Assembly: GCA_003155695.1 (NCBI GenBank)
Contig: PMDZ01000006.1
Coordinates: forward strand, 20,007-84,006
DNA from: Candidatus Nomurabacteria bacterium
GTDB taxonomy: Bacteria > Patescibacteriota > Minisyncoccia > Phycocordibacterales > UBA9973
Direction of reading: 5' to 3'
Length of the DNA stretch: 64,000 nucleotides
Shown here: positions 690 to 17,094 of the stretch, in pieces
Layout of the letters: every line of letters starts with the position of its first letter
Numbering within the stretch: the first letter of the stretch is position 1
Translations under genes and position numbers: made by a program
Notes under the pieces: generated by a model
Told to the model about the DNA's origin: nothing
The model's input: the letters and a program-made list of their open reading frames with translations, nothing else
Databases searched by the model: none

Positions 690-693
690 TAAT

Positions 694-1251: not shown

Positions 1252-1297
1252 AATTTAGCCTCTTCACCACACTTATTTTTAATGTTATAATTATGGT

Positions 1298-3043
1298 GTG
1301 AAAAGCGAAACCAAAACCTGCCAGAATTGCAAAAAAGACTTCATCATTGAGCCGGATGACTTTTCGTTCTACGAAAAAATCAAAGTTCCGCCGCCGACTT
1401 TCTGCCCCGAATGCAGAATGATTCGCAGAATGTCTTTTCGTAACGAAAGAACTATTTATAAAAGAAAATGCAACCTTTGCAATAAAGATATTGTCAGTAT
1501 TTATCGCCCTGATAGCCCTTTTATTGTTTATTGTTATGAGTGTTTTTATGGTGATAACTGGGATTATTCCAAATATGGTGTGGATTATGATTTTGATAAA
1601 TCATTTTTGAAACAATTCAGTGATTTAATTTTGAGTACACCGAAATTGGCAAATCAAGCAAGTAATAATCTTGTTAATAGTGAATATACGAATCACGTAG
1701 AATCGTTGAAAAATTGTTATCTTTTATTCGCTTCTAGAAATAATGAAGAGTGTATGTATTGTACACATGTTAATTATTCGAAAAATTTGATGGATTGCTA
1801 TAGAGTTTCAAAAAGTGAACTTTGTTACCAATGCGTTGATTGTGACAACGGTTATAATTTAAAATATTCTATTCAGTCGCAGTCTTGTGTTGACAGCTGG
1901 TTTTTGTTTAATTGTCGAGGCTGTACGGACTGCTTTTTAAGTTCGAATTTGATAAATAAGTCGTATTGTATTAATAATGAACAATGTACGAAAGAACAAT
2001 ACCAAGATTTTATGAAAGAATTGCTGACTGGAAATCATCAAACCGTTATTGATTTTCTTGATAAATTTAATATATTAAAAATGAATACAATCAGAAAATC
2101 TTCCGAAGGTGTTAATAATATCTTTTCTTCGGGTAATTATCTGAAAAATACGAAGAACTGCAAAAATTGTTTCGATATTTCCGATTCTGAGGACTGCAAA
2201 TTCTTAGGATATTGCAACAATGCTAAAGATGTAATGGATGGTTATGCCATTTATCCAACAACCGAATTTTCTTATGAAGTAGTCGGGGCAGGTGTAAATG
2301 CTTTCGGTAATCTGTTTTCATATTTACCCTGGGAAGGAGCTCTCAATCTGGTTTATTGTATAAATGCTTTTCCAGACTGTAAAAATTGTTTTGGATGTAC
2401 TCAAATAAGACATAAACAATATTGTATTTTGAACAAACAATATACAAAAAAAGAATATGAAGAACTTGTTCCGAAGATCATTAAACACATGAATGATATG
2501 CCATATGTAGACAGTAGGGGAATAGTATATAAATACGGAGAATTTTTTCCAAGCGAATTAAGCCCATTTTATTACAACGAAACTATTGCCCAAGAGTATT
2601 TCTCGTTAAAAAAAGAACAAGCTATATCACAAGGACATAAGTGGAAAGAGAAAGAAGACAGAAACTATAGTATTGATATACAAAATAAAGATATTCCTTA
2701 TGATATAAAAGATGTAAAAGATAATATATTAGGCAAAGTCATTGAGTGTGCTCACAAGGGAGAATGTAATCAACAATGCACTGAAGCTTTCAGAATTATC
2801 CCTGAAGAATTACAATTTTACAAAAGAATGAATTTACTCTTACCACGTCTTTGCTCAAACTGTCGGCACTATGAAAGATTATTGGAAATGAATCCAATGA
2901 AACTTTGGAAGAGGGAATGTATGTGCAACAAAACCAGTCATAGTCATAAAGGTAAATGCACAGTTGAGTTTGAAACAAGTTATGCTCCCGAGCGACCGGA
3001 AATTGTTTATTGTGAACGATGTTATCAGCAGGAAGTTTATTGA
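1298..3043 (+). CDS. Cysteine-rich protein, paralog 1 of 3 (581 aa); N- and C-terminal zinc-ribbon-like modules with an internally duplicated Cys/Asn/Tyr-rich core; family unknown
   Basis: N-terminus CQNCKKDFIIEPDDFSFYEKIKVPPPTFCPECRMIRRMSFRNER..YKRKCNLC. C-terminus ...FYKRMNLLLPRLCSNCRHYERL...ERPEIVYCERCYQQEVY. About 40 Cys and no signal peptide. Paralogs lie at 3626..5332 and 14905..16665. Confidence 0.8.
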   Translation: MKSETKTCQNCKKDFIIEPDDFSFYEKIKVPPPTFCPECRMIRRMSFRNERTIYKRKCNLCNKDIVSIYRPDSPFIVYCYECFYGDNWDYSKYGVDYDFDKSFLKQFSDLILSTPKLANQASNNLVNSEYTNHVESLKNCYLLFASRNNEECMYCTHVNYSKNLMDCYRVSKSELCYQCVDCDNGYNLKYSIQSQSCVDSWFLFNCRGCTDCFLSSNLINKSYCINNEQCTKEQYQDFMKELLTGNHQTVIDFLDKFNILKMNTIRKSSEGVNNIFSSGNYLKNTKNCKNCFDISDSEDCKFLGYCNNAKDVMDGYAIYPTTEFSYEVVGAGVNAFGNLFSYLPWEGALNLVYCINAFPDCKNCFGCTQIRHKQYCILNKQYTKKEYEELVPKIIKHMNDMPYVDSRGIVYKYGEFFPSELSPFYYNETIAQEYFSLKKEQAISQGHKWKEKEDRNYSIDIQNKDIPYDIKDVKDNILGKVIECAHKGECNQQCTEAFRIIPEELQFYKRMNLLLPRLCSNCRHYERLLEMNPMKLWKRECMCNKTSHSHKGKCTVEFETSYAPERPEIVYCERCYQQEVY

Positions 3044-3156
3044 AAAATGCTTGCCCCCGTAGTGAGCTTTGCCCTACTGCCGGGGTTATCATAATGAGGT
3101 ATTGTAACTATCAAGCCGAGATAGTTTAAGATTATTAACTAATAAAATTTAATTGT

Positions 3157-3582
3157 ATGCTTTTTGAATCAGTCGACAAAGAATCAAAAAATATTGTTTT
3201 CGTTTATACGACATGTTCTGGTATTGAAGAGGCAAGGTCAATAGGGCTCTCTGCCGTCGAAGAGAAGCTGGCTATTTCTGTGGATTATTGGCCAGTTAAT
3301 TCTATATATCCATGGCAAAATGTTATTAAGGAGATAGACCAATGTATGCTCATTTTTTCGACCCAAAAAATATTGAGTGATAAATTAATGAAACATATAG
3401 AGGCAGAACATTCATATGAAGTCCCAATGGTCATACGCTCAGATATGAAGATAACCAACCAGCCTTATTCTTTCTGGGTAGATAATACATTATCAAACAA
3501 AGATAAATATCTTACCGAAGAAGAATATGAACACAAAAAGAAAGAAGAAGAGGGAGGATATCAATATGATAAACTGAAGTAA
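3157..3582 (+). CDS. cutA: CutA1 divalent-cation tolerance protein with an acidic/basic C-terminal tail
   Basis: VYTTCSGIEEARSIGLSAVEEKLAISVDYWPVNSIYPWQ...HSYEVPMVI matches the conserved CutA core (VYTTxP..EEA..IA..L.E.LAAC.N..P..SIY.W.G.I..HPYEVPE). Confidence 0.8.
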   Translation: MLFESVDKESKNIVFVYTTCSGIEEARSIGLSAVEEKLAISVDYWPVNSIYPWQNVIKEIDQCMLIFSTQKILSDKLMKHIEAEHSYEVPMVIRSDMKITNQPYSFWVDNTLSNKDKYLTEEEYEHKKKEEEGGYQYDKLK

Positions 3583-3616
3583 TTACGAATTACGAATTAA
3601 TAATTACGAATTCAGG
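3581..3616. repeat. AT-rich microsatellite, TTACGAA(T) x3, directly after the cutA stop
   Basis: The sequence aattacgaattacgaattaataattacgaattcagg read directly. Confidence 0.5.
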
Positions 3617-3625
3617 ATTAAAATT

Positions 3626-5332
3626 TTGGAAAACAAACCAGAAAAAAGAATATGCCAGAATTGCAAGAAAGACTTCACTATCGAGCCGGAGGATTTTAAT
3701 TTTTACGAAAAAATCAAAGTTCCACCACCGACTTTTTGCTGGGAGTGTCGTCATCAGCGAAGACTAAGTTTCAGAAACGAAAGGATGTTTTATAAAAGGA
3801 ATTGCGGTTTGTGTGGAGAAAGTGTCGTGTCTCGTATTTCTCCAGATAAAAAATACCCAATGTATTGCCAAAAATGTTGGTGGAGCGACAAGTGGAACCC
3901 ATCAGATTACGGTCAAGAATATGACTTTTCAAAAACCTTTTTCGAACAATGGAAGGATTTATTTTTTAAGGTTCCTAGTATTCCGATGATTAATTCAAAC
4001 TCGGTTAACAGCGACTGGGTTAATCAAGAAACAGATGATAAAAATTGTTATTTGAATGTTGGAGGTCATTATAACGAGGATTCAGCTTACAATACATATG
4101 AAATATACGGAAAAAATTGTTTCGATGGTTACTGGATTTTAAATTGCGACCATTGTTCCAATTGCATACATTGCGAGAGAAGTTATTTTTCAAATTTTTC
4201 CGAGGAATGTCACGAGTGTTTATATACAAATTTTTCTTACGATTGCCGCAATTGTGACCATATGATCGGTTGTGCAGGACTCCGAAATAAAAAATATTAT
4301 ATATTTAATAAACAATACGAGAAAAAAGAATATGAAAAATTTTTAGAGGAACATCCATTTTCTTCCAATACTGGAGTTCTTTGGTGGATAAATGAAAGTC
4401 AAAAGATTTGGCTAAAATCTCCTCATCGAGAAAATATGATATTTAAAGCTACCAATTCTACCGGTAATGATTTATCTGAAGTAAAAAATTCCCATAATTG
4501 TTTTCAAGGAACAAATCTGGAAAACTGTAAAAATTCATTTATTTGCGGTTGGATGAAAGATACTCATGACAATAGTTCTCATGGAGCAGCCGAATTAGCA
4601 TATGAATGTGCACATGGTGGTGGATGTTACAATTCGAAATTTTTATTATATTGTATGGCAGGTGATCCTCTGAAAAAAATCAATCTTCACAATATTGAAT
4701 ATTCTGCGGCAGTTCTAAGCTCCAGCAATTGTTTTGGTTGTGTTGGCGTTCATGGGGGAGAATATATGATACTTAACCGCAAATATTCCAAAGATGAATA
4801 TAGTGAGTTATTGCCTAAAATTAAACAACACATGAATGATATGCCCTATGTCGATAAAAAGGGGAGAATCTATAAATATGGCGAATTTTTTCCAAGTGAA
4901 TTTTCTCCATTCGGTTATAATGAAACAACAGCAGAAGAATATATAAAATTAGAAAAAGAAGAAGTGCTCAAACAAGGTTATAACTGGAGTGATTATACTT
5001 CGGATGTGAAATATGAATTTTCGGATTATGTGATTCCCGATGATATTAAAGATGTTGGTGATGATATATTAGATAAAATTCTTAAATGCGAAGAAACTGG
5101 CAAAGCTTATAAAATAATCGAGATGGAGCTATCTTTCTATCGTCAGCTTGGGTTACCAATACCGCGTAAATCTCCACTTGCCCGCCACAAAGAAAGAATT
5201 TCCAAATTATTACCTTTAAAAATATTTAAAAGGAAATGTGATTTTTGTAAAAGAGAAATAAATACCTCATATCCTCCGGAACGTCCTGAAATTATATATT
5301 GCAAAAAATGTTATCAAAACGAAGTATACTAA
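3626..5332 (+). CDS. Cysteine-rich protein, paralog 2 of 3 (568 aa)
   Basis: Same architecture as 1298..3043. N-terminus CQNCKKDFTIEPEDFNFYEKIKVPPPTFCWECRHQRRLSFRNERMFYKRNCGLC. C-terminus ELSFYRQLGLPIPRKSP...ERPEIIYCKKCYQNEVY. Shares the block HMNDMPYVDKKGRIYKYGEFFPSEFSPFGYNETT with the other paralogs. Confidence 0.8.
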   Translation: MENKPEKRICQNCKKDFTIEPEDFNFYEKIKVPPPTFCWECRHQRRLSFRNERMFYKRNCGLCGESVVSRISPDKKYPMYCQKCWWSDKWNPSDYGQEYDFSKTFFEQWKDLFFKVPSIPMINSNSVNSDWVNQETDDKNCYLNVGGHYNEDSAYNTYEIYGKNCFDGYWILNCDHCSNCIHCERSYFSNFSEECHECLYTNFSYDCRNCDHMIGCAGLRNKKYYIFNKQYEKKEYEKFLEEHPFSSNTGVLWWINESQKIWLKSPHRENMIFKATNSTGNDLSEVKNSHNCFQGTNLENCKNSFICGWMKDTHDNSSHGAAELAYECAHGGGCYNSKFLLYCMAGDPLKKINLHNIEYSAAVLSSSNCFGCVGVHGGEYMILNRKYSKDEYSELLPKIKQHMNDMPYVDKKGRIYKYGEFFPSEFSPFGYNETTAEEYIKLEKEEVLKQGYNWSDYTSDVKYEFSDYVIPDDIKDVGDDILDKILKCEETGKAYKIIEMELSFYRQLGLPIPRKSPLARHKERISKLLPLKIFKRKCDFCKREINTSYPPERPEIIYCKKCYQNEVY

Positions 5333-5366
5333 ATAATTACTAATTATATATGGTATAATAAAAGAT

Positions 5367-7124
5367 ATGCATGTTGATGAAAAAGTAATTATAGACCTTC
5401 TCAATGATTCCGGATTAGTCACCAAAACAGATATTTCTGTCGCTCTTAAAAAATCTAAGGAAACCAACCAGCCACTCGGTTCGGTTTTGGTCAGTAACGG
5501 TAAATTGACCGAGAAAGACTGGAATAAAATTCAAGCGGTAGCTCTTGGCATTCCGTTCGTCAGTTTGGAAGGAGAGAAGATTGACCCGAACGTTTTAACT
5601 TTGATTCCCGAGCCGATTGCTCGAAATAATAATATTATTGCTTACAAAAAAACCAGTATTGGTTTGGAAGTGGCTATGCTTGATGTCGAGAACCTTCCGG
5701 TTATAGATTTTATTAAAAAGAAAGTTGGCACGCGCATTCTTCCCAGAATAACGAGCTCGGCTTCCATAAAAGAAGCCCTTAATCAATACAAGAAAAGTCT
5801 GCAAGCGGATTTTGAGGATATTATTAAAAAAGAAAGTAGCTCCATTAAGCCAGTAAAAGAAAGTGGCCCAGGTTCCGAAGAAAAATCTGAAAAAGAATTG
5901 AAAGAATTGGCCGAGGATTTGCCGATTGTTAAAATTGTAGACACTCTTATCTCGCACGCTATTACTCAAGGAGCTTCGGATATTCATATTGAACCGGAGG
6001 AAGAATCACTCATTGTTCGCTATCGTATTGACGGTATTTTGCATGATGCCATGGTACTACCCAAAGATACATCGTCAGGAATTGTCGCCCGTATTAAAGT
6101 CCTATCCAATCTAAAACTTGATGAGAAACGTCTTCCGCAAGATGGGCGTTTCAAAATCACAAACGACCAAGGCAATGTTTCTTTCCGTGTCTCGACTCTT
6201 CCGACATATTACGGCGAGAAAACTGTTATCAGAATTCTGCGGGAAAACGCCAAAGGTTTTTCTCTGGAAGGGCTTGGTTTCCACGGTGAAGCCCTGGAGA
6301 GAATCCATGACGGGATGAAAAAACGTACGGGCATGCTCCTTTGCGCCGGGCCGACCGGTTCCGGAAAGACGACAACCCTTTATACGATGCTCGATATTTT
6401 GAATACTCCTGATGTGAATATTTCAACCGTTGAAGACCCTATTGAATATCAAATGGCCAGAATTAATCAAACTCAGACGAAAGCGGAAATTGGGCTGACT
6501 TTCGCCAATGGTTTGCGTACACTACTACGTCAGGACCCTGATATAATCATGGTCGGAGAAATTCGTGACGGAGAAACAGCTTCGCTTGCCATAAATGCTT
6601 CACTCACCGGACATCTGGTTCTCTCGACTATTCACACTAACTCCGCGGCTGGAGCCATCCCTCGTATGATTGATATGGGGGTTGAACCATTCTTGATTGT
6701 TTCAACAGTTAAGACGGTTATTGCCCAGAGATTGGTCCGATTACTTGCAGAGGGGAAAGAAAAATATTTTTTAAGTGATATAGAAATGAAAGCCTTGGAA
6801 AAAGTGGTAGACCTCGACCGCGTTCTTGGATTTTTAAAATTGGAAAAAATTGTTGATGAGAATGCAACTTGGGACAAAATTCCATTTTATAAACCAAAAG
6901 GAAGCGAGGAATCAAAAGATGGCTTTAAGGGGCGTATCGGAATTCATGAAGTTCTTAAAGTGACAACGACTATTAAAGAAATGATTTTAAAGGGCTCGTC
7001 TGTAGATGAAACAGAAAAGATGGCAAAAAGTGAAGGAATGATGACAATGCTTGAAGATGGCATATTCTTGGCGGCCCAAGGTTTGACTTCGACGGAAGAA
7101 GTTCTTCGTGTTGTTTCGGAATAA
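5367..7124 (+). CDS. pilB: Type IV pilus assembly ATPase PilB (GspE family)
   Basis: An N-terminal T2SSE_N-like domain, the Walker A motif GPTGSGKTTTL, and the His/Asp boxes typical of GspE/PilB. The gene is followed by pilC. Confidence 0.9.
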   Translation: MHVDEKVIIDLLNDSGLVTKTDISVALKKSKETNQPLGSVLVSNGKLTEKDWNKIQAVALGIPFVSLEGEKIDPNVLTLIPEPIARNNNIIAYKKTSIGLEVAMLDVENLPVIDFIKKKVGTRILPRITSSASIKEALNQYKKSLQADFEDIIKKESSSIKPVKESGPGSEEKSEKELKELAEDLPIVKIVDTLISHAITQGASDIHIEPEEESLIVRYRIDGILHDAMVLPKDTSSGIVARIKVLSNLKLDEKRLPQDGRFKITNDQGNVSFRVSTLPTYYGEKTVIRILRENAKGFSLEGLGFHGEALERIHDGMKKRTGMLLCAGPTGSGKTTTLYTMLDILNTPDVNISTVEDPIEYQMARINQTQTKAEIGLTFANGLRTLLRQDPDIIMVGEIRDGETASLAINASLTGHLVLSTIHTNSAAGAIPRMIDMGVEPFLIVSTVKTVIAQRLVRLLAEGKEKYFLSDIEMKALEKVVDLDRVLGFLKLEKIVDENATWDKIPFYKPKGSEESKDGFKGRIGIHEVLKVTTTIKEMILKGSSVDETEKMAKSEGMMTMLEDGIFLAAQGLTSTEEVLRVVSE

Positions 7125-7131
7125 TGGATGA

Positions 7132-7253
7132 ATCCCGTACGAGATCCACATGTTATCTTTTACAGAATAGTTAAAAATAATTATAAGGTTTATATTATAA
7201 ACAATAAATTAGTAAGAAACGTCCCATCTTTGAGGGACTATCTCGTACGGGAT
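7132..7253. promoter_or_regulatory. 14-bp perfect inverted repeat (ATCCCGTACGAGAT / ATCTCGTACGGGAT) bracketing the pilB-pilC intergenic spacer; the right arm overlaps the pilC ATG
   Basis: Arms at 7132..7145 and 7240..7253 read from the sequence. An inner hairpin GTCCCATCTTTGAGGGAC lies at 7221..7238. Confidence 0.4.
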
Positions 7254-8466
7254 GAAATTTAAATATAAAATACAAAATAAAAATAATGAAATAATGGAAG
7301 GAATTATTGAATCTCCCGATAAGTTTACTTTGGCCAGGGAATTGCGGGAAAAAGGAAATACTCCGATTTCGATAGAAGAGGTCAAAGAAAAAGAAGGAAT
7401 TTTATCGGTGAAGTTAAGTTTTTTTTCGAGAGTTTCTCTCTCGGAAAAAATCATGTTTACCAATAATTTAAGCGGAATGTTAACGGCTGGACTTTCTTTG
7501 AGTCGAGCATTATCAATATTGGAAAAACAATCGACCAATCATGCTCTCTGCGATATACTGCGTGGACTGGAAGAAGATATAAGCAAAGGTAACTCTCTTT
7601 CGGAGGGAATGAAAAAATTTCCCAAAATTTTTTCCGGAATTTTCGTTCCAATGGTTCATGCAGGAGAAGAATCCGGTAATTTGCCAAGCACACTGACCGA
7701 AGTTGGTATAAGTCTTAAGAAATCCTACGATTTGAATAAAAAAATAAAAGGAGCGATGACATACCCAGGAATTATTCTTTGTGCCATGATAGTAATCGGT
7801 ATATTTATGATGATTTATGTTGTTCCAACTTTGACCAAGACATTTAAAGATTTAGGAACTGAATTACCGACATCGACAAAAATAATTATTTGGATTTCCG
7901 ATACTATTAGTCAGCACATAATCCTATTCTTCGCGATAATAGTCTTTGTTATCATAGGTATTGTTTTACTTTCCAAACTTAAACTGGTCCAAAGATATTT
8001 TGACCGTATCATTTTATATATTCCGGTTATCGGGAATATAGTTAAAGAAGTTAATACTGCTCGCACAGCAAGGACAATGTCGTCGCTTTTATTATCGGGT
8101 GTCAGCATTTCAAATTCTTTATCGATAACGGAAGAAGTTCTTCAGAACGTTCATTACAAGGAACTGATTCATAAATCAATCGGGTCCATAGAAAAAGGAA
8201 TGGTTTTATCCGCTTCATTTAAAGAAAATATTTTTCTGTATCCAATCATGATGGGTGAGATGGTTGAAGTTGGAGAAGAAACCGGTAATCTGTCAAAAAT
8301 GCTTTTGGATATTGCCAATTTTTATGAAAATGAAGTAGATAATAAAACCAAAGACTTATCGACGATTATTGAACCGGTATTGATGCTTATAATCGGTGCA
8401 GTTGTCGGAATTTTTGCTGTCTCAATGATAAAACCGATGTATTCGGTTATGAATAATATTAGCTAG
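7252..8466 (+). CDS. pilC: Type IV pilus inner-membrane platform protein PilC (GspF family)
   Basis: Two T2SSF-like repeats with three TM segments, in the usual position after pilB. Confidence 0.85.
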   Translation: MKFKYKIQNKNNEIMEGIIESPDKFTLARELREKGNTPISIEEVKEKEGILSVKLSFFSRVSLSEKIMFTNNLSGMLTAGLSLSRALSILEKQSTNHALCDILRGLEEDISKGNSLSEGMKKFPKIFSGIFVPMVHAGEESGNLPSTLTEVGISLKKSYDLNKKIKGAMTYPGIILCAMIVIGIFMMIYVVPTLTKTFKDLGTELPTSTKIIIWISDTISQHIILFFAIIVFVIIGIVLLSKLKLVQRYFDRIILYIPVIGNIVKEVNTARTARTMSSLLLSGVSISNSLSITEEVLQNVHYKELIHKSIGSIEKGMVLSASFKENIFLYPIMMGEMVEVGEETGNLSKMLLDIANFYENEVDNKTKDLSTIIEPVLMLIIGAVVGIFAVSMIKPMYSVMNNIS

Positions 8467-8470
8467 TTAG

Positions 8471-10285
8471 ATGATAAATTATTTTAAAATAAAAAATAAA
8501 AAAAATGGATTTACATTAGTGGAAACATTAGTGGCGACGGCTATTTTTGTCTCTATCTCGGTTGGAATATATGTAGGGCTAATGAATATTTTAAAAATAA
8601 TGAATATAATCCGGACAAAAAATATAATGACGGATATTGCCAATGAACAGTTTGAAATTGTCCGAAATTTGCCATATAGTAGCGTGGGCACAGTTAGTGG
8701 AATTCCTTCCGGTATTCTTTCCCAAAGTAAAACAATTAATCGTGATAATAAAGTTTTCGATGTGGATACTGTGGTTCGTAATTTTGACGACCCGTTTGAT
8801 GGCACTTTTGACGGGACTCCCAAAGATACATCTCCGGCAGATATGAAGATAATAGAATTGACGATTGCATGTACTTCATGCGACGATACTTTAGCCCCGA
8901 TCTCTTTTACGACAAAAGTTGCGCCGAAAAATCTTGAAACCACTTCCGTAGATGGGGCAATTGTTGTTAAAGTTTTCGACTCGTCGGGATTGCCTGTCGG
9001 TGGTGCTAGTGTTAATGTTGTAAATAATAGTATTACTCCCGCTGTAAATATAAACGATGAAACCGATGTAAATGGAATGTATACAATTGTTGATGCTCCT
9101 CCGTCGGTTGGTAGTTATCAGATTATCGTTACTAAAGACGGGTATTCTACTGACCGCACTTATCAAACTGGAGGAACCGGTAACCCGGCGCATCCAACTA
9201 AACCAAACCTGACTGTCGTTGTTCAACAAATTTCGCAAATGTCCTTCACAATAGATCAAACCAGCACTATTGATTTTTCCAGTATAAATAGTCAGTGTGT
9301 GGCAACTCCGGGTTTTGATTTTACTTTGTCGGGAAGTAAATTAATCGGAACAAATCCTAACACTCTCAAATACTCCAATTCGCTTGTGACAGACAGTTCA
9401 GGACTGCTAACTTTACCTAATGTTGAATGGGATACATATAACATTACCGGTATTGATAGTGCTTATGATATTATCGGAACCAATCCGCTTTTATCACTCG
9501 GTATCAATCCCAATGTTGAACAAAATATGCAGATTATTACCGCTCCCAAAAATGGCAGAAGGCTTTTGGTTGTAGTGAGAGACCAATCTACCGGGTTGCC
9601 TATTTCCGACGCTACTGTTGCTGTCACTGGTCCAAGTAGCTATTCGCAAAGTTATACTACAAGCCAGGGATTTTTGACTCAAACAGATTGGTCCGGGGGA
9701 AGTGGACAAACCTCCTTTGGAAGCGCAAATAAGTTCTTCGATTCGGACGGTAACATTGATTATAGTTCTTCGCCTGGGAATTTAAGCTTGAAAAAACTAA
9801 GTAATTATGTTCCGAATGGCTATCTCACTTCGTCTACTTTCGATACAGGTTCGGCAAGTAATTTTAGACAAATTATTTGGAGTCCGGCAACGGAACCATC
9901 TCAAACAGGAACATCAAGTGTTAGATTCCAAATCGCTACAAACAACGATAATGCCACATGGAATTTTACCGGGCCTGATGGAACTTCATCCACATATTAC
10001 AGTTCCGCCAATCAAAATATAAGTTCAACCAATAACGGACAAAGATATATCCGCTATCGGTTGTATCTCTCTACTTCAAACCAATCATATACTCCGACTA
10101 TATCGGATATTTCCTTCACTTATACTTCAGCTTGTATCCCTCCCGGACAAGTATCTTTCTCTGGTCTTGCTTCCGGTAGTTACGGTATTTCTGTGACAAA
10201 AACCGGTTATCACAGTACGTCAAAAAATATAACAATTGCAAGTGGAGATAGCTGGGTCAAGCAAGAAATTACGATTTCGCCATAA
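8471..10285 (+). CDS. Large (604 aa) type IV pilin / prepilin-type protein
   Basis: A class III signal peptide: MINYFKIKNKKNG|FTLVETLVATAIFV, i.e. the G-F-T-L-V-E cleavage/methylation motif followed by a hydrophobic helix. The long S/T/G-rich globular region contains carboxypeptidase-regulatory-like beta domains. Confidence 0.8.
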   Translation: MINYFKIKNKKNGFTLVETLVATAIFVSISVGIYVGLMNILKIMNIIRTKNIMTDIANEQFEIVRNLPYSSVGTVSGIPSGILSQSKTINRDNKVFDVDTVVRNFDDPFDGTFDGTPKDTSPADMKIIELTIACTSCDDTLAPISFTTKVAPKNLETTSVDGAIVVKVFDSSGLPVGGASVNVVNNSITPAVNINDETDVNGMYTIVDAPPSVGSYQIIVTKDGYSTDRTYQTGGTGNPAHPTKPNLTVVVQQISQMSFTIDQTSTIDFSSINSQCVATPGFDFTLSGSKLIGTNPNTLKYSNSLVTDSSGLLTLPNVEWDTYNITGIDSAYDIIGTNPLLSLGINPNVEQNMQIITAPKNGRRLLVVVRDQSTGLPISDATVAVTGPSSYSQSYTTSQGFLTQTDWSGGSGQTSFGSANKFFDSDGNIDYSSSPGNLSLKKLSNYVPNGYLTSSTFDTGSASNFRQIIWSPATEPSQTGTSSVRFQIATNNDNATWNFTGPDGTSSTYYSSANQNISSTNNGQRYIRYRLYLSTSNQSYTPTISDISFTYTSACIPPGQVSFSGLASGSYGISVTKTGYHSTSKNITIASGDSWVKQEITISP

Positions 10286-10290
10286 ATATT

Positions 10291-10908
10291 ATGTTTACGA
10301 ATTCATTTAAAAAAAATAATGGTTTTACACTTTTGGAAATTCTGATTACGATGGTGATTTTTACCGCAATTATGGGTGTTGTAACCATGTTTGCCAGAGA
10401 CTTGTTTTATTACAACAGTATGTTTTCCAGTGGTTTAACTTCTTATGATGAAGCAAGAAAAGTTCTTCAGCCTATCTCTTCCGAGATTCGTTCCGCTTCG
10501 CCATCTTCTTTGGGTTCTTATCCTATTGAGACAGCAGGTATTACAGCTTTTACTTTTTTTTCCGATATTAATAGTGATGGGTTGAAAGAAAGAATTAGAT
10601 ATTTTTTATCCGGAACTACATTAATGAAAGGAGTTATTGTACCGTTAGGAAGCCCATTGCAGTATTTGTCGAATACGGAAGTTCTTACAGAAATTGTGCA
10701 CAATGTTCGAAATGGTTCAACTCCCATATTTACTTATTATGATTCCAGTTATAACGGTAGTACATCTCCTTTGTCGCAACCGGTTTCAATTTTATCCGTC
10801 CGTCTTGTTATGATAACTTTAATTCTTGAAGGAGACCCCAATAGGCAACCTGCCCCGATAACAGTTACTACGGAAGTAAGTATTCGTAACCTTAAAGATA
10901 ATTTATGA
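10291..10908 (+). CDS. Prepilin-type N-terminal cleavage/methylation domain protein (minor pilin / pseudopilin)
   Basis: KKNNG|FTLLEILITMVIFTAIMGV prepilin motif. Confidence 0.8.
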   Translation: MFTNSFKKNNGFTLLEILITMVIFTAIMGVVTMFARDLFYYNSMFSSGLTSYDEARKVLQPISSEIRSASPSSLGSYPIETAGITAFTFFSDINSDGLKERIRYFLSGTTLMKGVIVPLGSPLQYLSNTEVLTEIVHNVRNGSTPIFTYYDSSYNGSTSPLSQPVSILSVRLVMITLILEGDPNRQPAPITVTTEVSIRNLKDNL

Positions 10909-12386
10909 TTTATAAAATAGAAAAATACAATAAAGATAGTCGCGGAGTAATTCTTTTGAATGTTCTGGTGTTTTCTGCTTTAGCGATATCTCTTGTGACG
11001 TTCTTTATTACCTGGGCATCCTCCAGTGTCAAAATAGTAGAATCAACATTGCACAAAGAACAAGCTTTTCAGATTGCGGAAGCTGGGGTAGATTATTATC
11101 GCTGGCATTTGGCTCATGCTCCTAGTGATTTTAAAGACGGAACAACAAACAATGGACCTTATACCCACATTTTTTACGATAAAGATGGAGTTGCTATCGG
11201 TAGTTTTATTTTAACCATTACTCCTCCTATAATAGGCTCAACTATCGTTACAATCAAATCGGAGGGACATGTAAATAATTACCCATCAATCAAAAGAACA
11301 ATTCAAACAAAACTCGCTATTCCATCTTTTGCAAAATACGCTATTGTTGCAAACGATAATATGCGTTTTGGAGAAGGAACTGAAATTTTTGGTCCAGTTC
11401 ATTCGAACGGTGGTATCAGATTCGATGGAATAGCTCACAACATTGTGACAAGTGCCCTTTCTTCCTATGATGACCCCGATCACTCGGGTGGTTCAGAGTT
11501 TGGTGTTCATACCCACGTGAATGTCGGAGGTGGAATTAACGATTCTTTTCGCTCACAAGAGGCGCCTCCGACAAGTCCGGTTCCAACAAGGAGTGATGTC
11601 TTTCTCGCAGGACGTCAATTCCCGGTTCCGCAATCTGATTTCACCGGAATTACAAATGATCTTTCTGTAATTAAAACAAATGCTACGTCAGGGGGTAAGT
11701 ATTTGGCTCCATCAGGAGCTCTTGGCTATCATATTGTACTTAAAACAAACGATACTTATGATTTATATAAAGTAAATAATTTGGCTACTCCCTCCGACAG
11801 CGATTGTGCCAGCACTTCAAATTACGGGGACGATACCTGGGGAACATGGAGTATAGCTTCTGGCGGACAAACTCTGGTAGGGAATTACAATAATCCGGCA
11901 AATGGACTTATCTTTGTGGAAGATAATGTTTGGGTTGACGGTCAGATAAATACCGCCAGAATTACAATTGCTGCCGGAAAATTCCCGGATAATGTAGGTA
12001 CCAGAAAAAGTATATTTATTAATAACGACCTTATGTATACAAACTATAATGGGCAAGATGTAATCGGTCTAATTGCCCAAGACGACGTGACTGTCGGAAT
12101 GATAAGTGACGACAACCTTCGCATTGATGCCGCTCTCATGGCGGTTAATGGCAGAGTTGGAAGACATTATTACAGTGATCAATGTAGCCCGTATCATTTA
12201 AGAAATAGCATTACTCTTTATGGAATGATAGGCAGTAATCAACGATATGGATTTGCTTACACAGATAATACTGGTTACGATACCCGTACAATTATTTATG
12301 ATGCCAATTTGTTATACGGGCCACCGGTTTCTTTTCCTCTAACTTCCGATAAATACTCAACTATTTCGTGGGATGAGATGGAGTAA
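10905..12386 (+). CDS. Pilus-associated membrane-anchored protein (PilX-like, degenerate prepilin motif)
   Basis: The N-terminus SRGVILLNVLVFSALAISLV is hydrophobic and prepilin-like but lacks the Glu at +5. Its start overlaps the upstream pseudopilin gene by 4 nt, so it is operonic. Confidence 0.45.
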   Translation: MIYKIEKYNKDSRGVILLNVLVFSALAISLVTFFITWASSSVKIVESTLHKEQAFQIAEAGVDYYRWHLAHAPSDFKDGTTNNGPYTHIFYDKDGVAIGSFILTITPPIIGSTIVTIKSEGHVNNYPSIKRTIQTKLAIPSFAKYAIVANDNMRFGEGTEIFGPVHSNGGIRFDGIAHNIVTSALSSYDDPDHSGGSEFGVHTHVNVGGGINDSFRSQEAPPTSPVPTRSDVFLAGRQFPVPQSDFTGITNDLSVIKTNATSGGKYLAPSGALGYHIVLKTNDTYDLYKVNNLATPSDSDCASTSNYGDDTWGTWSIASGGQTLVGNYNNPANGLIFVEDNVWVDGQINTARITIAAGKFPDNVGTRKSIFINNDLMYTNYNGQDVIGLIAQDDVTVGMISDDNLRIDAALMAVNGRVGRHYYSDQCSPYHLRNSITLYGMIGSNQRYGFAYTDNTGYDTRTIIYDANLLYGPPVSFPLTSDKYSTISWDEME

Positions 12387-12430
12387 TAATAACCTTACAT
12401 AAATGGTTATTTTGTGGTATAATAGAACAT

Positions 12431-13183
12431 ATGGCTAAAATCGTTGTTGCCAACTGGAAAGAAAACCCGCAATCCCAAAAAGAGGCGGAAGTTCTTTTTA
12501 AGGGTACATTTCTCTTGGCGAAATTCAGAGAAAACACCAGAATCATTATCTGCCCGCCATTTCCATACCTCTATCTGTCCGGAAAATTTAAAAATAAAAA
12601 AGTTTTTCTTGGTGCCCAGAATGTCGGAAAAGAGGAGGGCGGGTCTTATACCGGGGAAGTTTCGCCTAAAATGCTTTCCGATATGGGAGCGGATTTTGCA
12701 ATAGTCGGCCACGGAGAAGAACGCTTACTTGGAGAGACAAATGAAATTATAAATGCAAAAATATTAAATTTACTTAAATTTAAACTCTCACCGATTCTTT
12801 GTGTCGGGGAAAGTGAGAGAGACAAAGAGGGAAATTATCTTTCTTTCGTCGAAGGACAAGTGAAAGATTGTCTTTTGGCTGTACCTAAAGCCCAAATGAA
12901 AAATATTATCATCGCTTACGAACCGATATGGGCAATAGGAGCGAATGCCACTCGTGAAGCAACAAAAGAAGAATTTATGGAAATGAAAATTTTTATCAAA
13001 AAAGTAATTTCCGATATTTATGACGGGAAGATTGCTCACAGTATACCGATTCTTTACGGCGGTTCGGTGAATCCAGCTAATGCTTCGCAATTTGTGGATG
13101 GTGGAAAAGCCGACGGACTGCTCGTTGGTCGCGACAGTCTCGACCCGAAAAAATTTGGAGCAATATTAAACGCCTTAAATTAA
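12431..13183 (+). CDS. tpiA: Triosephosphate isomerase
   Basis: ANWKEN, IVGHGEERLL, AYEPIWAIGAN and YGGSV match the canonical NWKMN, GHSERR, AYEPVWAIGTG and YGGSV motifs. Confidence 0.9.
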   Translation: MAKIVVANWKENPQSQKEAEVLFKGTFLLAKFRENTRIIICPPFPYLYLSGKFKNKKVFLGAQNVGKEEGGSYTGEVSPKMLSDMGADFAIVGHGEERLLGETNEIINAKILNLLKFKLSPILCVGESERDKEGNYLSFVEGQVKDCLLAVPKAQMKNIIIAYEPIWAIGANATREATKEEFMEMKIFIKKVISDIYDGKIAHSIPILYGGSVNPANASQFVDGGKADGLLVGRDSLDPKKFGAILNALN

Positions 13184-13188
13184 ATAAA

Positions 13189-14310
13189 ATGAAATCAATA
13201 AAAGAATTAAAAAATTTAACCGGCAAAAGAGTTGTTCTCCGAGCCGATTTCAATGTGCCGATAAAAAACGGCGTTGTCCTTGATGATTTCCGGATTAAAA
13301 AAGTTATTCCGAGCATTTTATATTTGCAGAAGAAAGGCGCGAAAGTTATTATTATTTCCCATATCGGAGACGACGGGAAAGAGAGTTTGCTTCCGGTGGC
13401 AAATAAACTTAAAAAATATATTAAAGACGTGAACTTTATTCAAACGCCGATTTTTTCCAACGAGACACAAAAAATATTAAATTCACTAAAAAATAAAGAT
13501 ATAGTCTTGCTTGAGAACTTGCGTCGCGAGACCGGCGAAAAGAAAAATTCGCCTTCATTTGCAAGGGCTTTATCGCGGTATGGCGATATTTACGTCAATG
13601 ATGCTTTCTCGGTTTCTCACCGCGAACATGCTTCGATTGTTGGCATCACCAAGTATCTTCCCGGCTATGCCGGTTTTCAGATGGAAGCCGAAGTAGAAAA
13701 TTTATCAAAAGTCTTTAATCCGCCACACCCATTTTTATTTATCTTGGGCGGAGCGAAATTTGAAACGAAAATTCCTTTGATTAAAAAGTTTCTTCGCCAA
13801 GCCGACCACATTTTTATTGCCGGAGCGATTGCCAATGACTTCTTCAAAGCAAGAGGTTATGAAGTCGGAACATCGCTTGTCAGTGATGCGAATTTTCAAA
13901 TTACTCCGCTCTTAAAAGCTAAAAATCTAATTCTGCCGACTGATGTTGAAGTTACAAAAAATTCCAAAAATCATATAACCAAGCCGACCGAGGTCATGCC
14001 GGATGAAAATATTGTTGATATCGGACCGCAATCGGTTCTCCAGCTCAAAGATTTAATTGCTAAAGCCGAATTTATTCTCTGGAATGGACCACTTGGAAAA
14101 TTTGAAAGTGGTTTCGGTAAAGCAACAGAAGAAGTGCTTAAGATTGTTTCCAAATCAAAAGCCAAGAATGTCATCGGCGGAGGGGACACAGTTGCACTTA
14201 TCTCAAAACTCAAAATTGAAGATAAACTCGGTTTCGTTTCAACCGGCGGTGGGGCTACTCTCGATTTCCTTTCCAAAGGAACCTTGCCGGGGATCCGTGT
14301 ATTAAAATAA
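13189..14310 (+). CDS. pgk: Phosphoglycerate kinase
   Basis: RADFNVP at the N-terminus, a hinge, and C-terminal nucleotide-binding motifs (GGGDT-like GGGATLDFL). The gene is adjacent to tpiA. Confidence 0.9.
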   Translation: MKSIKELKNLTGKRVVLRADFNVPIKNGVVLDDFRIKKVIPSILYLQKKGAKVIIISHIGDDGKESLLPVANKLKKYIKDVNFIQTPIFSNETQKILNSLKNKDIVLLENLRRETGEKKNSPSFARALSRYGDIYVNDAFSVSHREHASIVGITKYLPGYAGFQMEAEVENLSKVFNPPHPFLFILGGAKFETKIPLIKKFLRQADHIFIAGAIANDFFKARGYEVGTSLVSDANFQITPLLKAKNLILPTDVEVTKNSKNHITKPTEVMPDENIVDIGPQSVLQLKDLIAKAEFILWNGPLGKFESGFGKATEEVLKIVSKSKAKNVIGGGDTVALISKLKIEDKLGFVSTGGGATLDFLSKGTLPGIRVLK

Positions 14311-14322
14311 ATATGTAAATAT

Positions 14323-14901
14323 ATGTCCATAATAAATATTTTTAAAAAGATAATTCAAAAGAGACCAAATGAGAATGATTATGGAATAAACCTGTCGATT
14401 CCATCACTTAAAAAATTTCTGACTTATTTGCCCCCGAATCCAATGATTCTGAACGTCGGGTGCGGAATAGGTCAAGACTCCAAATTTCTGAAAGAGAACG
14501 GCTGCTATGTTTTGGGAGTGGATTCGTCCAAAGAGATGATTAACCGAGCGAAAGTTTACGCTCCCGAAGTTAAATTCGAATTGCAAGATTTTATGAAGTT
14601 GGAGCCGAGCGTCAAATATGACGCGATTTGGTGCTCCAGAGTTTTTCATCATATGGTAAATATTGGACCAGAAAAATTCTTCGGCCAAGCAAAAAATTTA
14701 TTGAAAGAAAAAGGAGTTTTATATTTAACATCGGTTGCTTCCGATACGGAACGAGGTGAAATAATAAAAAACAATCTGGTTATTCGCGGATTAACCGAAA
14801 ATTCGTTCAAGAGTATGGTTATGGAGAATGGTTTTGAAATCTTGGATTTTAATTATTGGGATGACAGGAAAGGTATGGAAATATTTGCCAGAGTAAAATA
14901 A
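14323..14901 (+). CDS. Class I SAM-dependent methyltransferase
   Basis: Motif I LNVGCGIGQD, followed by the acidic motif VLGVDSS. Confidence 0.7.
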   Translation: MSIINIFKKIIQKRPNENDYGINLSIPSLKKFLTYLPPNPMILNVGCGIGQDSKFLKENGCYVLGVDSSKEMINRAKVYAPEVKFELQDFMKLEPSVKYDAIWCSRVFHHMVNIGPEKFFGQAKNLLKEKGVLYLTSVASDTERGEIIKNNLVIRGLTENSFKSMVMENGFEILDFNYWDDRKGMEIFARVK

Positions 14902-14904
14902 AAA

Positions 14905-16665
14905 ATGGAAGATCAGACCAAAATATGCCAAAACTGCAAAAATAAGTTCAACATCGAACCCGATGATTTTTCTTTCTACGAGAAAATGAAAGTTCCGGCA
15001 CCAACTTTTTGCTATCTTTGCAGAGTAGAGAGACGGCTGGCATTTCGAAACGAGAGAAAATTTTTCAGAGTCAAGGATGCTTTTACAGGTCTTGATATTT
15101 TTTCTCTTTACCCACCAGAAAGCGGGAAGAAATCAGTAACCGAAGAAGAATGGCACAAGGACAACTGGAACGAACTTGATTACGGCCGTGATTATGATTT
15201 TTCCATAAATTTTTTCAAACAGCTCTACAAATTGGAAAAAGAAGTGCCGATTTTCGCCCTTCGGGTTGAAGGCATGATCAATAGCTCCTATTGTGCCAAT
15301 GCTTCATATTTGAGGAATACTTACCTTTGTTTCAATTCCAATACTTCGGAAAGCTGTATGTACGGTAATGCCGTCGATTACAGTAAAGATTGTGTAGATA
15401 ACTCCCATGTCAATCATATGGAAAGATGTTACGAATGTTTCTGGATGCAGAATTGTTATCAATGTTATTTTACGATTATGTCGGCGGAATCGAGAAATTT
15501 GTGGTTCTGTCGAAATTGCCTTGGTTGTAACGATTGTTTTGGTTGTACCAACTTACGCAAAGCCTCATATTATATATTCAATAAACAATATTCAAAAGAA
15601 GACTATTTTTCGGAAATAGAAAAAATGAAATTGGATACGATATCCGGTCTTAAAAAGGCAAGAGAAGCTGCCAGAAATTTCTGGAAAACTCAACCGACAA
15701 AATACCAGCACGGCCTGAAAAATATTAATTCAACCGGTTCGTACGTTACCAATTGCAAGAATGTTAATGACAGTTTCCTTATCAGAGAAGGGGAAAATAT
15801 GCGTTATTGCCAGTATTTGCAGGTTCCAAAAAACAAAGATTGTTATGATACCACAGCCTGGGGGGATAATATGGAAATGCATTATGAAACTTGTCTTTGC
15901 GGCGAAAATTCATACAATCTTAAATTTTCAACCGACAGTTGGCCAAACTGCAAAAATCTCGAGTATTGTATAAGTTGTTTCAGTACATCCGATTGTTTTG
16001 CTTGCGTCGGTTTGAAGAAAAAACAATATTGTATTTTCAACAAGCAATATGGAAAAGACGAATATTTTGAAATGGTGGAAAAAATAAAAAAACAGATGGA
16101 TGATATACCGTATGTCGACAAAAAGGGGAGTGTCTATAAATACGGTGAATTTTTCCCGATTGAACTTTCACCGTTCGGTTACAACAATACGACATCTTTC
16201 CAATATTTCCCGATGACGAAAGTTAAAGCCGAGGAAAACGGCTACCCATGGATTGAAGTTCCGCGTGGTAAATATAATATCACCAAAAAAGCCTTGGAAT
16301 TACCCTATTCAATTAACGATGCGGATGAAAGCATTTTGGATGATGTCATCGAATGCAACAATTGTAAAAATCCTTACAAAATTCTGGAAGACGAATTTAA
16401 TTTTTATAAAAAAGAAAAAATACCGTTGCCGGATTTATGCGATGAGTGTCGTTTCAGAAGAAGAATCGAAGACAGATTAAAGTTTCAACTCTACGATAGG
16501 TCTTGTATGTGTTCAGGAGAAAAAGATGCCACTGGAAAATACAAAAATACCGTCAAACATGTCCACGGTGACAATTCTTGCGAAGAAAAATTCAAAACCG
16601 GCTACGGTTCGGAGAGAGGAGAGATAATCTATTGTGAGAAATGTTATCAGCAGGAAGTTTATTAA
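14905..16665 (+). CDS. Cysteine-rich protein, paralog 3 of 3 (586 aa)
   Basis: N-terminus CQNCKNKFNIEPDDFSFYEKMKVPAPTFCYLCRVERRLAFRNER. C-terminus EFNFYKKEKIPLPDLCDECRFRRR...ERGEIIYCEKCYQQEVY. The internal block QMDDIPYVDKKGSVYKYGEFFPIELSPFGYNNTT is conserved with paralogs 1 and 2. Confidence 0.8.
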   Translation: MEDQTKICQNCKNKFNIEPDDFSFYEKMKVPAPTFCYLCRVERRLAFRNERKFFRVKDAFTGLDIFSLYPPESGKKSVTEEEWHKDNWNELDYGRDYDFSINFFKQLYKLEKEVPIFALRVEGMINSSYCANASYLRNTYLCFNSNTSESCMYGNAVDYSKDCVDNSHVNHMERCYECFWMQNCYQCYFTIMSAESRNLWFCRNCLGCNDCFGCTNLRKASYYIFNKQYSKEDYFSEIEKMKLDTISGLKKAREAARNFWKTQPTKYQHGLKNINSTGSYVTNCKNVNDSFLIREGENMRYCQYLQVPKNKDCYDTTAWGDNMEMHYETCLCGENSYNLKFSTDSWPNCKNLEYCISCFSTSDCFACVGLKKKQYCIFNKQYGKDEYFEMVEKIKKQMDDIPYVDKKGSVYKYGEFFPIELSPFGYNNTTSFQYFPMTKVKAEENGYPWIEVPRGKYNITKKALELPYSINDADESILDDVIECNNCKNPYKILEDEFNFYKKEKIPLPDLCDECRFRRRIEDRLKFQLYDRSCMCSGEKDATGKYKNTVKHVHGDNSCEEKFKTGYGSERGEIIYCEKCYQQEVY

Positions 16666-17066
16666 ATCGCTTTCTTTATTTTTTCAAGTGTTTTTTTGGC
16701 TTCCGATTCTTTGTATTCTTTTGTCGGGAAGTTTCTAAAAAAATCTCCATTATATCGAGGTATCACGTGGACGTGGAAATGGGGGACTTCGTTACCGACA
16801 ACTGATTCCTGAACATAATCACATTTTAAACTCTTTTTGAGAGCAAGCATCATTTTTTTTGTTAGTTTGAAGATATCTCCGATTGTCTTATCGTCTGCTT
16901 CCTGCATCCAAACAATATGTTTTTTGGGAATTATCAAAAGATGACCATGGCTGACCGGTTTAATATCAAGAAAAACCAAGAAATTTTTATCCTCGAAGAC
17001 TTTACTACAAGGGATCTCTCCCTTTGCCAGCTTGCAAAATATGCAGCTATTTGTTTGTTCGGTCAT
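16662..17066 (-). CDS. HIT-family (histidine triad) nucleotide hydrolase
   Basis: The HIT motif VPHFHVHVIP. The start is taken at MTEQTNSCIFC rather than the longer ORF reaching 17090, which would overlap recJ. Confidence 0.8.
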   Translation of the reverse strand: MTEQTNSCIFCKLAKGEIPCSKVFEDKNFLVFLDIKPVSHGHLLIIPKKHIVWMQEADDKTIGDIFKLTKKMMLALKKSLKCDYVQESVVGNEVPHFHVHVIPRYNGDFFRNFPTKEYKESEAKKTLEKIKKAI

Positions 17067-17094
17067 GTTAGCATTATATGGTAAAATCAAAAGT

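Follow-up and report, generated by a model that had tools for sequence, protein, structure and literature searches.

Three genes on the forward strand of a 64,000-nucleotide stretch of a Candidatus Nomurabacteria genome (NCBI GenBank assembly GCA_003155695.1, contig PMDZ01000006.1, positions 20,007 to 84,006; hereafter the window) encode paralogs of a Cys-rich protein that cannot be placed, as an entire protein, in any described family. The protein is new both as a family and as an architecture and is built of recognizable finger and solenoid folds. Its core loci in related genomes carry genes for a pair of ATPases related to the VirD4/TrwB coupling proteins, and the family members are tentatively proposed to be adaptor or partner subunits of this pair.

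Paralog A (1298..3043, + strand) starts with GTG and encodes 581 residues with 40 cysteines, paralog B (3626..5332, +) starts with TTG and encodes 568 residues with 32 cysteines, and paralog C (14905..16665, +) starts with ATG and encodes 586 residues with 37 cysteines. These are the three open reading frames (ORFs) picked out by an initial annotation made from the sequence alone; its figure of roughly 40 cysteines suits A and C and is slightly generous for B. End-to-end identities are 40.6% for A and B, 40.2% for A and C, and 35.8% for B and C (BLAST E values of 1e-108 to 1e-149). This similarity is far above chance, and the three proteins are true, old paralogs. The concern that they might be assembly duplicates of one locus is ruled out because the copies are too diverged (36–41% identical) and because each resembles orthologs from other species more closely than it does the other two copies. 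A tblastn search across the window found no fourth copy. Cysteine makes up 5.6–6.9% of the residues (23–42 cysteines per protein across the family), and each of the three proteins contains 12–14 CxxC motifs compared with 1.8–2.7 in 2000 shuffled sequences (P < 0.0005). No signal peptide or transmembrane segment is present in A, B, or C. The first 30 residues average −0.8 to −1.3 in hydropathy; the maximum over 19-residue windows is 0.84–1.15 in these proteins and 1.48 across the family. The proteins are most likely soluble and cytoplasmic, as first suggested, because their N termini are strongly hydrophilic and no stretch nears the hydrophobicity of a transmembrane segment.

The layout of the protein is a pair of treble-clef fingers (F1 and F2), a tandem Cys-rich β-solenoid (M1 and M2), a unique block (C1), and a second pair of treble-clef fingers (F3 and F4). 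In A, F1 (1319..1414, +; C8, C11, C36, C39) is of the zf_Tbcl (PF13451) type and is followed by a basic patch (R40/R43/R44/R48/R51), and F2 (1469..1543, +; C58, C61, C79, C82) has the exact CxxC-x17-CxxC pattern starting at residue 58. F3 (2747..2863, +; C484, C494, C519, C522) is a homolog of F1, and F4 (2918..3022, +; C541, C554, C572, C575) is of the zf_Tbcl_2 or CxxC-x17-CxxC type and lies at the protein end, YCERCYQQEVY. In B, F1 (3653..3748, +), F2 (3803..3877, +), and F4 (5237..5311, +) are intact, the last two with exact CxxC-x17-CxxC patterns at residues 60 and 538, and the F3 ligands are lost (CTSA). In C, F1 (14926..15021, +), F3 (16354..16449, +), and F4 (16504..16644, +) are intact, and the F2 ligand positions read DTTE. 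The F4 fingers of A and C keep the x17 spacing (C554–C572 in A, C559–C577 in C) and have an insertion before it. Further small departures from the motifs quoted in the initial annotation, which are otherwise present in all three copies, are ERGEI for ERPEI in C and YNETI for YN.TT in A.

An AlphaFold2 model of A, computed from a 69-sequence family alignment, forms a single body with a mean predicted local distance difference test (pLDDT) score of 85.9 and a predicted template modeling score of 0.85. In each modeled finger, a β-hairpin knuckle carries the first CxxC and the N terminus of a helix carries the second: strands 4–7 and 14–17 flank C8/C11, helix 37–45 starts at C36/C39, and C58/C61 are arranged likewise with helix 80–84. 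The predicted fold is treble-clef, related to zf_Tbcl and zf_Tbcl_2, rather than that of a classical ribbon. The reading of the N terminus as two consecutive C4 zinc ribbons is thus half right: a pair of Cys4 sites is present in A and B, the fold differs, and C lacks the second finger. Among 223 family members, all four ligands are kept in 219 for F1, 107 for F2, 187 for F3, and 221 for F4. Written as F1–F4 with 1 for a complete ligand set, the pattern 1111, to which A belongs, has 99 members, 1011 (that of C) has 84, 1001 has 28, and 1101 (that of B) has six. The ligand patterns indicate that F1 and F4 are universal and that F2 and F3 are lost in defined lineages. The loss of F2 in C extends to its entire lineage (12 further members) and is therefore an old trait and not decay. 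The F1 cysteines have an occupancy of 0.99 across the family, the EVY C terminus is common, and arginines are conserved at R40, R43, R523, R527, and R539 in proteins with an overall isoelectric point of ~6.3.

Profile-profile comparison (hhalign) of segments cut from the 69-sequence alignment shows that the protein is internally repetitive, which the initial annotation had missed together with the absence of F3 from B. The C-terminal module (~100 residues) is homologous to the N-terminal module (~90 residues) with 99.2% probability (E = 6.8e-20), and the center is a tandem duplication, M1 (~91–250) matching M2 (~251–395) with 99.9% probability (E = 2e-36). The C1 block has no repeat partner within the protein. 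M1 and M2 have a hydropathy period of ~12 residues, many very short strands, and cysteines at multiples of three, and each is capped by a conserved helix. In A, solenoid repeat M1 (1658..1993, +; approximately residues 121–232) ends with a C206-x2-C209-x2-C212 cluster and an LxNKxYCIxN..Y..E.Y helix cap, and M2 (2093..2446, +; approximately residues 266–383) ends with CFGC...YCILNKQYTKKEY. Block C1 (2483..2731, +; residues 396–478) reads HMNDMPYVD..G.VYKYGEFFPSELSPF.YNET..EY.....W. Entropy is 1.7–1.8 bits in the finger modules and C1, the most conserved parts of the protein, compared with 2.2–2.3 bits in the solenoid body, the least conserved. C1 itself has an entropy of 1.78 bits and a pLDDT of 92–98; G414 is invariant, N427 has an occupancy of 0.99, and C1 residues other than cysteine are close to invariance. 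The occupancy of the solenoid cysteines is mostly 0.3–0.75. Structure prediction, suggested at the outset as a test for zinc ribbons and a β-solenoid, predicts a solenoid, with treble-clef fingers in place of the ribbons.

No profile covers the whole protein. A, B, and C have no whole-protein match in Pfam, NCBIfam, or PADLOC; PHROGs returned a single match (phrog_15341, of unknown function, E = 0.003), and a PDB sequence search with hmmsearch gave nothing better than E = 1.7. The initial failure to assign a named family is upheld by these searches. The fingers alone come close to known profiles. F1 of two divergent members matches PF13451 over residues 2–40 with 30.4 and 24.7 bits (cutoff 24), and sub-threshold matches occur among the 69 close relatives to PF13451 (19 of 69) and PF23477 (14 of 69). 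The best family score for PF23477 is 26.0 bits at F4 (cutoff 27) and that for TIGR04272 is 19.6 bits (cutoff 36); F4 of relatives matches TIGR04272 with E = 5.4e-4. A, B, and C gave no match to PF13451 even at E ≤ 10 and none detected to PF23477 or TIGR04272. A Med15_N match in 25 of the 69 members (E ≥ 0.0028) falls on the KQYTKEEYEEL helix and was treated as compositional noise. Small CxxC-x17-CxxC proteins of Methanosarcina bind zinc as measured by inductively coupled plasma mass spectrometry (PMC12704099), and the family proteins are most likely zinc-binding as judged from their finger motifs, in line with the first description of them as cytoplasmic metal-binding proteins. A literature search found nothing on this family, PF13451, PF23477, DUF8128, or the gene cassette described below.

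The family is large. A word-indexed search found at least 7,959 clusters at 90% identity; the names shown for these were all 'hypothetical' except for one 'Zn ribbon nucleic-acid-binding protein', and none carried a Pfam domain. A hidden Markov model (HMM) search of 1.84 billion representatives gave 5,375 clusters at 50% identity (E ≤ 1e-3), 2,264 of them at E ≤ 1e-30. The best 150 of these are mostly 540–612 residues long with one end-to-end match, and a minority are shorter fragments. Among those checked, every informative source name belongs to the Patescibacteria (candidate phyla radiation, CPR), which agrees with the restriction to CPR that had been put forward as a question. The named sources are Paceibacterota, Nomurabacteria, Staskawiczbacteria, Giovannonibacteria, Jorgensenbacteria, Liptonbacteria, Sungiibacteriota, and metagenome-assembled genomes (MAGs) labeled Gracilibacteria. 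One contig labeled 'Burkholderiales bacterium' (L006, JAMPXW010000002.1) holds four family genes, two genes for type IV coupling protein (T4CP)-like ATPases, and synteny of the Paceibacteria type (DnaJ, agmatinase, cysteinyl-tRNA synthetase (CysRS), PerM); it is probably misbinned because its neighbors are of the CPR type. Many third-party annotation labels reading 'uncultured Candidatus Saccharibacteria' look generic rather than accurate. No relatives were found on IMG/VR viral contigs, and an origin from a phage or mobile element was rejected on this ground.

Copy number was analyzed in 80 loci from species-representative genomes, which contain ~190 family genes. Same-strand tandem arrays are common and reach 6–7 copies (loci L035, L075, L070, and L028), and family genes adjoin one another 70 times compared with 34 ± 4 by shuffling. 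One 672-kb contig carries at least nine family genes in three sampled 22-kb stretches, equal to at least 2.3% of the contig. Three copies are thus ordinary for the family, and the view that they represent an unusual dosage in a streamlined genome does not hold. Spans of 2.0–2.6 kb in tblastn results were not caused by inteins or insertions; the tool had joined adjacent paralogs. Median best identity is 45% between copies of the same locus (maximum 62%) compared with 61% to a locus of another species, and just 9 of 156 same-locus copies share a lineage. Because same-locus copies are less alike than cross-species copies and few share a lineage, the duplications are ancient and the lineages have been maintained individually. 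C has orthologs at 62–67% identity in loci L069, L017, L027, and L086, and B is a singleton lineage in this sample with a best identity of 47–48%. The lineage closest to A lies between ftsW and murG in the dcw cluster of at least three genomes (L001 8874..12957, L057, and L061), an unusual spot for a non-dcw gene. A ParE-toxin/PhdYeFM-antitoxin pair is encoded on the opposite strand inside a five-gene family array (L161 16756..17297). Some family genes are split by frameshifts or stops into two adjacent or overlapping ORFs (L075 5789..7536, L024 525..2339, L105 10362..12124, L110 8361..10046, and L113 7681..9115); these could be pseudogenes or MAG sequencing errors.

Clustering of the flanking ORFs of the 80 loci identified a soluble P-loop ATPase of ~500 residues as the most recurrent neighbor, present in 34 of 80 loci. 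These ATPases match TrwB_AAD_bind, DUF87/HerA, TraG-D_C, and T4SS-DNA_transf, have sub-threshold NCBIfam matches to VirD4-like and TraD coupling proteins, and have TrwB as their closest solved relative; weak matches to HerA_antiphage also occur. The T4CP-like genes directly adjoin a family gene in 31 of 46 cases compared with 19.5 ± 3.0 by within-locus shuffling (P = 0.0005). Since the loci had been selected for the family, metagenome contigs were scanned in reverse with an alignment of the ATPase. The close ATPase subfamily has a family gene in 38 of 47 loci, within 1 kb in 36 of the 47; among loci of at least 8 kb, 25 of 30 have one within 1 kb. Distant ATPase relatives have a family gene in 6 of 33 loci. 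The linkage holds for ATPase cores that are 30–42% identical and lie beside family members 31–39% identical to A, B, and C, and it is therefore old and widespread. DnaK, CysRS, PerM, SecDF, agmatinase, and a Sigma70_r4/HARE-HTH protein were rejected as partners by the permutation test, which showed plain synteny and not adjacency; DnaJ adjacency (7 of 14, P = 0.10) was not significant in the same test.

The ATPases come in two forms. Near its C terminus T4L (~570–800 residues) has a CxxC-x17-CxxC finger and, beyond it, a tail rich in Pro, Lys, and Ser with an ADLGIEF motif; T4S (~480–520 residues) lacks the finger. The T4L tail (L082 2109..4292, L021 4557..6743, and L029 7895..9901) is long and probably disordered, and its conserved parts are the ADLGIEF motif and a C-terminal LRK(I/T)LE ending. 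At least 17 loci contain a same-strand cassette, T4L–family genes (1–4)–T4S, which may continue into further family genes, with gaps of <400 bp; the gene between T4S and the next family gene is DnaJ in eight loci and CutA in seven. Precomputed Pfam matches lay out one such cassette in L164 (3314..11749) as T4L (DUF87, TrwB_AAD_bind, zf_Tbcl_2), family gene, T4S, DnaJ, and family gene. The order T4L, family gene, T4S, DnaJ or CutA, and family gene also occurs in L082, L083, L085, L091, L108, and L121. Four of the 12 other members of the lineage of C directly follow T4L and two directly precede T4S. No other architecture using the family modules had appeared in ~1.4 Mb of related DNA before an HMM of F2 detected the T4L finger. 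Of 157 ATPase ORFs, about 50 contain CxxC-x17-CxxC and 46 are detected by the F2 model (best independent E value 1e-6); TIGR04272 and PF23477 match both the ATPase and the family proteins. The upstream DNA often encodes a block made up of a Sigma70_r4/HARE-HTH protein and two membrane proteins, DUF8128 and a small one. DUF8128 (PF26449) is usually encoded by a separate gene before the T4CP-like ATPase with a small gene between them, and in L161 it is fused to the ATPase (747 residues); these arrangements were noted at L161 19743..21635 and L163 3858..7553. The fusion suggests that DUF8128 is the membrane anchor of the ATPase. A 2025 survey reports 5,713 VirD4-type homologues in 2,918 Patescibacteria genomes, of which 148 are near virB4, and states that exaptation 'cannot be ruled out'; the passages of the survey that were searched name no partner and mention no cassette, DUF8128 partner or fusion, or shared finger (PMC12102498).

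These associations are consistent with family proteins that are stabilized by zinc and serve the orphan, membrane-associated ATPase pair of the VirD4/TrwB type as adaptor or partner subunits, a reading to which a probability of about 0.4 is assigned. The terminal fingers, of a type also found on the T4L tail, would form with C1 a constant docking or ligand-binding element that binds either the ATPase itself or a shared ligand; given the type of the fingers and their conserved arginines, nucleic acid is a plausible candidate. Specificity would differ between paralog lineages through the variable surface of the solenoid. A, B, and C would be dispersed members with an ATPase partner encoded elsewhere in the genome, and the arrangement A–cutA–B could be a remnant of the (ATPase)–CutA–family gene order of other genomes. 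A bolder extension, which is doubtful, would make the family, DUF8128, and T4L/T4S an undescribed lineage-specific ATP-driven machine that imports, exports, or segregates DNA or protein. The family would then be the partner set of thousands of orphan VirD4-type ATPases, with the paralogs setting the cargo or target.

Several observations weigh against the adaptor proposal. The physical interaction is proposed from genome comparison, and nucleic-acid binding from the arginines and the finger type. Adjacencies in related genomes are not phylogenetically independent, so the permutation P values are optimistic. A tblastn search of the 64-kb window found no T4CP-like gene. Across the family, just 63 of 282 genes have one within 400 bp, and roughly half of the family-centered loci lack one within 10 kb; the ATPase association is a property of the family core loci and not of every copy. 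The finger similarity between ATPase and family falls under curated thresholds (26.0 compared with 27 bits and 19.6–19.8 compared with 36 bits), and Cys4 fingers converge easily. The C1 block and the partly conserved C206/C209/C212/C215 cluster are left unaccounted for.

The family members could instead be stand-alone zinc-finger proteins that bind nucleic acid or regulate, as DNA/RNA-binding scaffolds or DNA mimics, and the ATPase adjacency would then be synteny inherited at an old expansion hotspot. Such a role would suit four treble-clef fingers with conserved Arg patches, the one database name that mentions nucleic-acid binding, the 219 of 282 copies that are not adjacent to an ATPase, and the location of all three window copies in housekeeping operons. 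It is unlikely in view of the reverse test, in which 36 of 47 loci have a family gene within 1 kb, and of a linkage that persists across diverged ATPase cores in several gene orders; the ATPase itself carries a finger of this type, and the proteins as a whole are not basic. Adjacency to a coupling-type ATPase also raises the idea that the proteins are its cargo, translocated without a signal peptide, with the β-solenoid acquiring disulfide bonds once outside, where it would be displayed on the surface or directed at a host. The rigidly uniform length and ~61% identity of orthologs are unlike typical effectors or surface proteins, and four canonical Cys4 zinc sites point to a reducing compartment. 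A disulfide-forming (Dsb) pair occurs in just 1 of 80 loci, and the ATPases are mostly far from virB4 (PMC12102498), so that no channel is evident; export is quite unlikely.

The cysteines invite two further explanations. Buffering, storage, or chaperoning of zinc or copper together with CutA would fit the 23–42 cysteines per protein and the CutA1 adjacency described below, which includes the window. It is very unlikely: cysteine accounts for just 5.6–6.9% of residues, the solenoid cysteines are poorly conserved where non-Cys residues of C1 are near-invariant, which better fits structural metal sites and a binding surface, and the many ancient specialized paralogs would be left unexplained. 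Fe-S or redox enzymes using the solenoid CxxCxxC(xxC) clusters are suggested by the occupancies of C206 (0.87), C209 (0.87), C212 (0.96), and C215 (0.81) and by CxxCxxCxxC motifs that are far commoner in B and C than in shuffles. However, all four ligands occur in just 132 of 223 members, A has Ser215, A, B, and C contain no ferredoxin CxxCxxCxxxC or radical-SAM CxxxCxxC motif, and no profile or fold match to an Fe-S family was found, so that an Fe-S function is highly improbable. An equally slim chance is given to a role in an anti-phage or conflict system, with diversified paralogs serving as sensors or effectors for an ATPase of the HerA/FtsK type. The weak DUF87/HerA and HerA_antiphage matches of the ATPase, the many diversified paralogs, and the ParE/Phd pair inserted in the L161 array are what such a system might show, but A, B, and C have no PADLOC match, viral contigs carry no relatives, and the paralog lineages are ancient, stably inherited, and embedded in housekeeping operons (dcw, tpiA-pgk, dnaK-dnaJ).

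The window neighbors contribute one recurrent partner. The cutA gene (3157..3582, +; Pfam CutA1, E = 5.4e-21) lies between A and B, and CutA genes adjoin a family gene in eight of nine cases compared with 3.6 ± 1.4 expected by shuffling (P = 0.003). It is the sole window neighbor that recurs beside family genes elsewhere. The initial annotation had placed the three copies among cutA, a pilus operon, tpiA-pgk, and a methyltransferase; Pfam identifies CutA1, PilB/PilC/pilin, and a class I methyltransferase, together with HIT, RecJ, and ComEC after C, and tpiA and pgk were recognized from the ORFs only. Apart from cutA this interleaving is incidental. Links to the pilus operon, tpiA-pgk, the methyltransferase, HIT, RecJ, ComEC, and a thioredoxin/DsbB pair were each rejected with 0–2 of 80 loci, mostly the syntenic L060. 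The idea of co-occurrence with type IV pili receives no support from gene neighborhoods, in which the orphan ATPase pair, absent from the window, is the recurrent partner.

Other features of the window were noted in passing. The DNA immediately upstream of A (309..1251) encodes a DsbB homolog (Pfam E = 2.7e-11) and a thioredoxin-like protein with a CPHC motif and a membrane anchor, a disulfide-forming pair whose association with A is probably coincidental; it is found beside family genes in 1 of 80 loci (the syntenic L060). A promoter-like site at 1263..1291 upstream of A (TTCACC-17-TATAAT with TG; a consensus match only) was the one informative result of a promoter and terminator scan. C starts 3 nt past the end of the methyltransferase gene. 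A HIT gene (16662..17090, −) converges on C with a 4-nt overlap of the stop regions, and the longest recJ ORF (17032..18774, +), which has a TTG start, overlaps the 5′ end of HIT by ~59 nt; translation of recJ probably begins downstream of this TTG. A run of three large pilin-like ORFs (8471..12386; 604, 205, and 493 residues) follows pilB and pilC, and the large ones exceed the usual size of minor pilins or tip proteins. The first has a Pfam-confirmed N-terminal methylation motif and CarboxypepD_reg, and the other two are pilin-like by N-terminal sequence.

A large part of bacterial diversity belongs to the Patescibacteria, whose genomes are tiny and whose lineage-specific genes are mostly unexplained. 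The family described here has 5,375 clusters with no name, no whole-protein profile model, and no solved structural relative, and the ATPase link connects it to another unexplained CPR gene family and provides the first testable clue to the function of both. If the link is true, the two would form a new ATPase-partner module specific to the Patescibacteria radiation; if the machine extension also held, the module would be a core, genome-costly part (at least 2% of coding capacity) of an ultra-small symbiotic lifestyle. If the link is false, the family would still be among the largest uncharacterised bacterial zinc-finger architectures and would merit a curated family model.

Comparison with known proteins separates the family from each of its nearest parallels. 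PF13451, PF23477, and TIGR04272 describe the same finger types as the four terminal fingers. These are isolated fingers of 35–48 residues with unknown function that cover <25% of the family protein and neither the solenoid nor C1. Structure matches to the solenoid in the PDB are generic solenoids only: the spruce budworm antifreeze protein (1m8n), curli CsgA (8c50), left-handed β-helix acyltransferases, and γ-carbonic anhydrases are 3–8% identical with Foldseek E > 2, and hexapeptide and pentapeptide repeat profiles gave no match, so the trimeric left-handed β-helix type does not apply. The known examples are extracellular proteins or enzymatic trimers, whereas the family solenoid is flanked by zinc fingers of the cytoplasmic type. 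Metallothioneins are small proteins with ~30% cysteine in clusters conserved throughout. The family differs from such stores in its low cysteine content over ~580 residues and in its poorly conserved solenoid cysteines.

A possible functional parallel, by analogy only, lies in classical type IV secretion. Xanthomonas effectors carry a conserved VirD4-interacting domain, and Gram-positive T4CPs without a transmembrane domain are recruited by a separate membrane protein. By analogy, the family would resemble T4CP substrates or adaptors in combining a constant module with a variable part encoded beside a coupling ATPase, and T4L/T4S would resemble the Gram-positive T4CPs in being ATPases without their own transmembrane domain that are preceded by a membrane protein (DUF8128). 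The family shares no sequence or fold similarity with these substrates and adaptors and has no virB4 channel genes nearby. Classical effectors carry different toxin domains, whereas the variable part of the family always has the same fold. T4L and T4S themselves fit the picture, as given in the searched passages of the survey, of abundant T4CP homologues in Patescibacteria that are unlinked to virB4 (PMC12102498).

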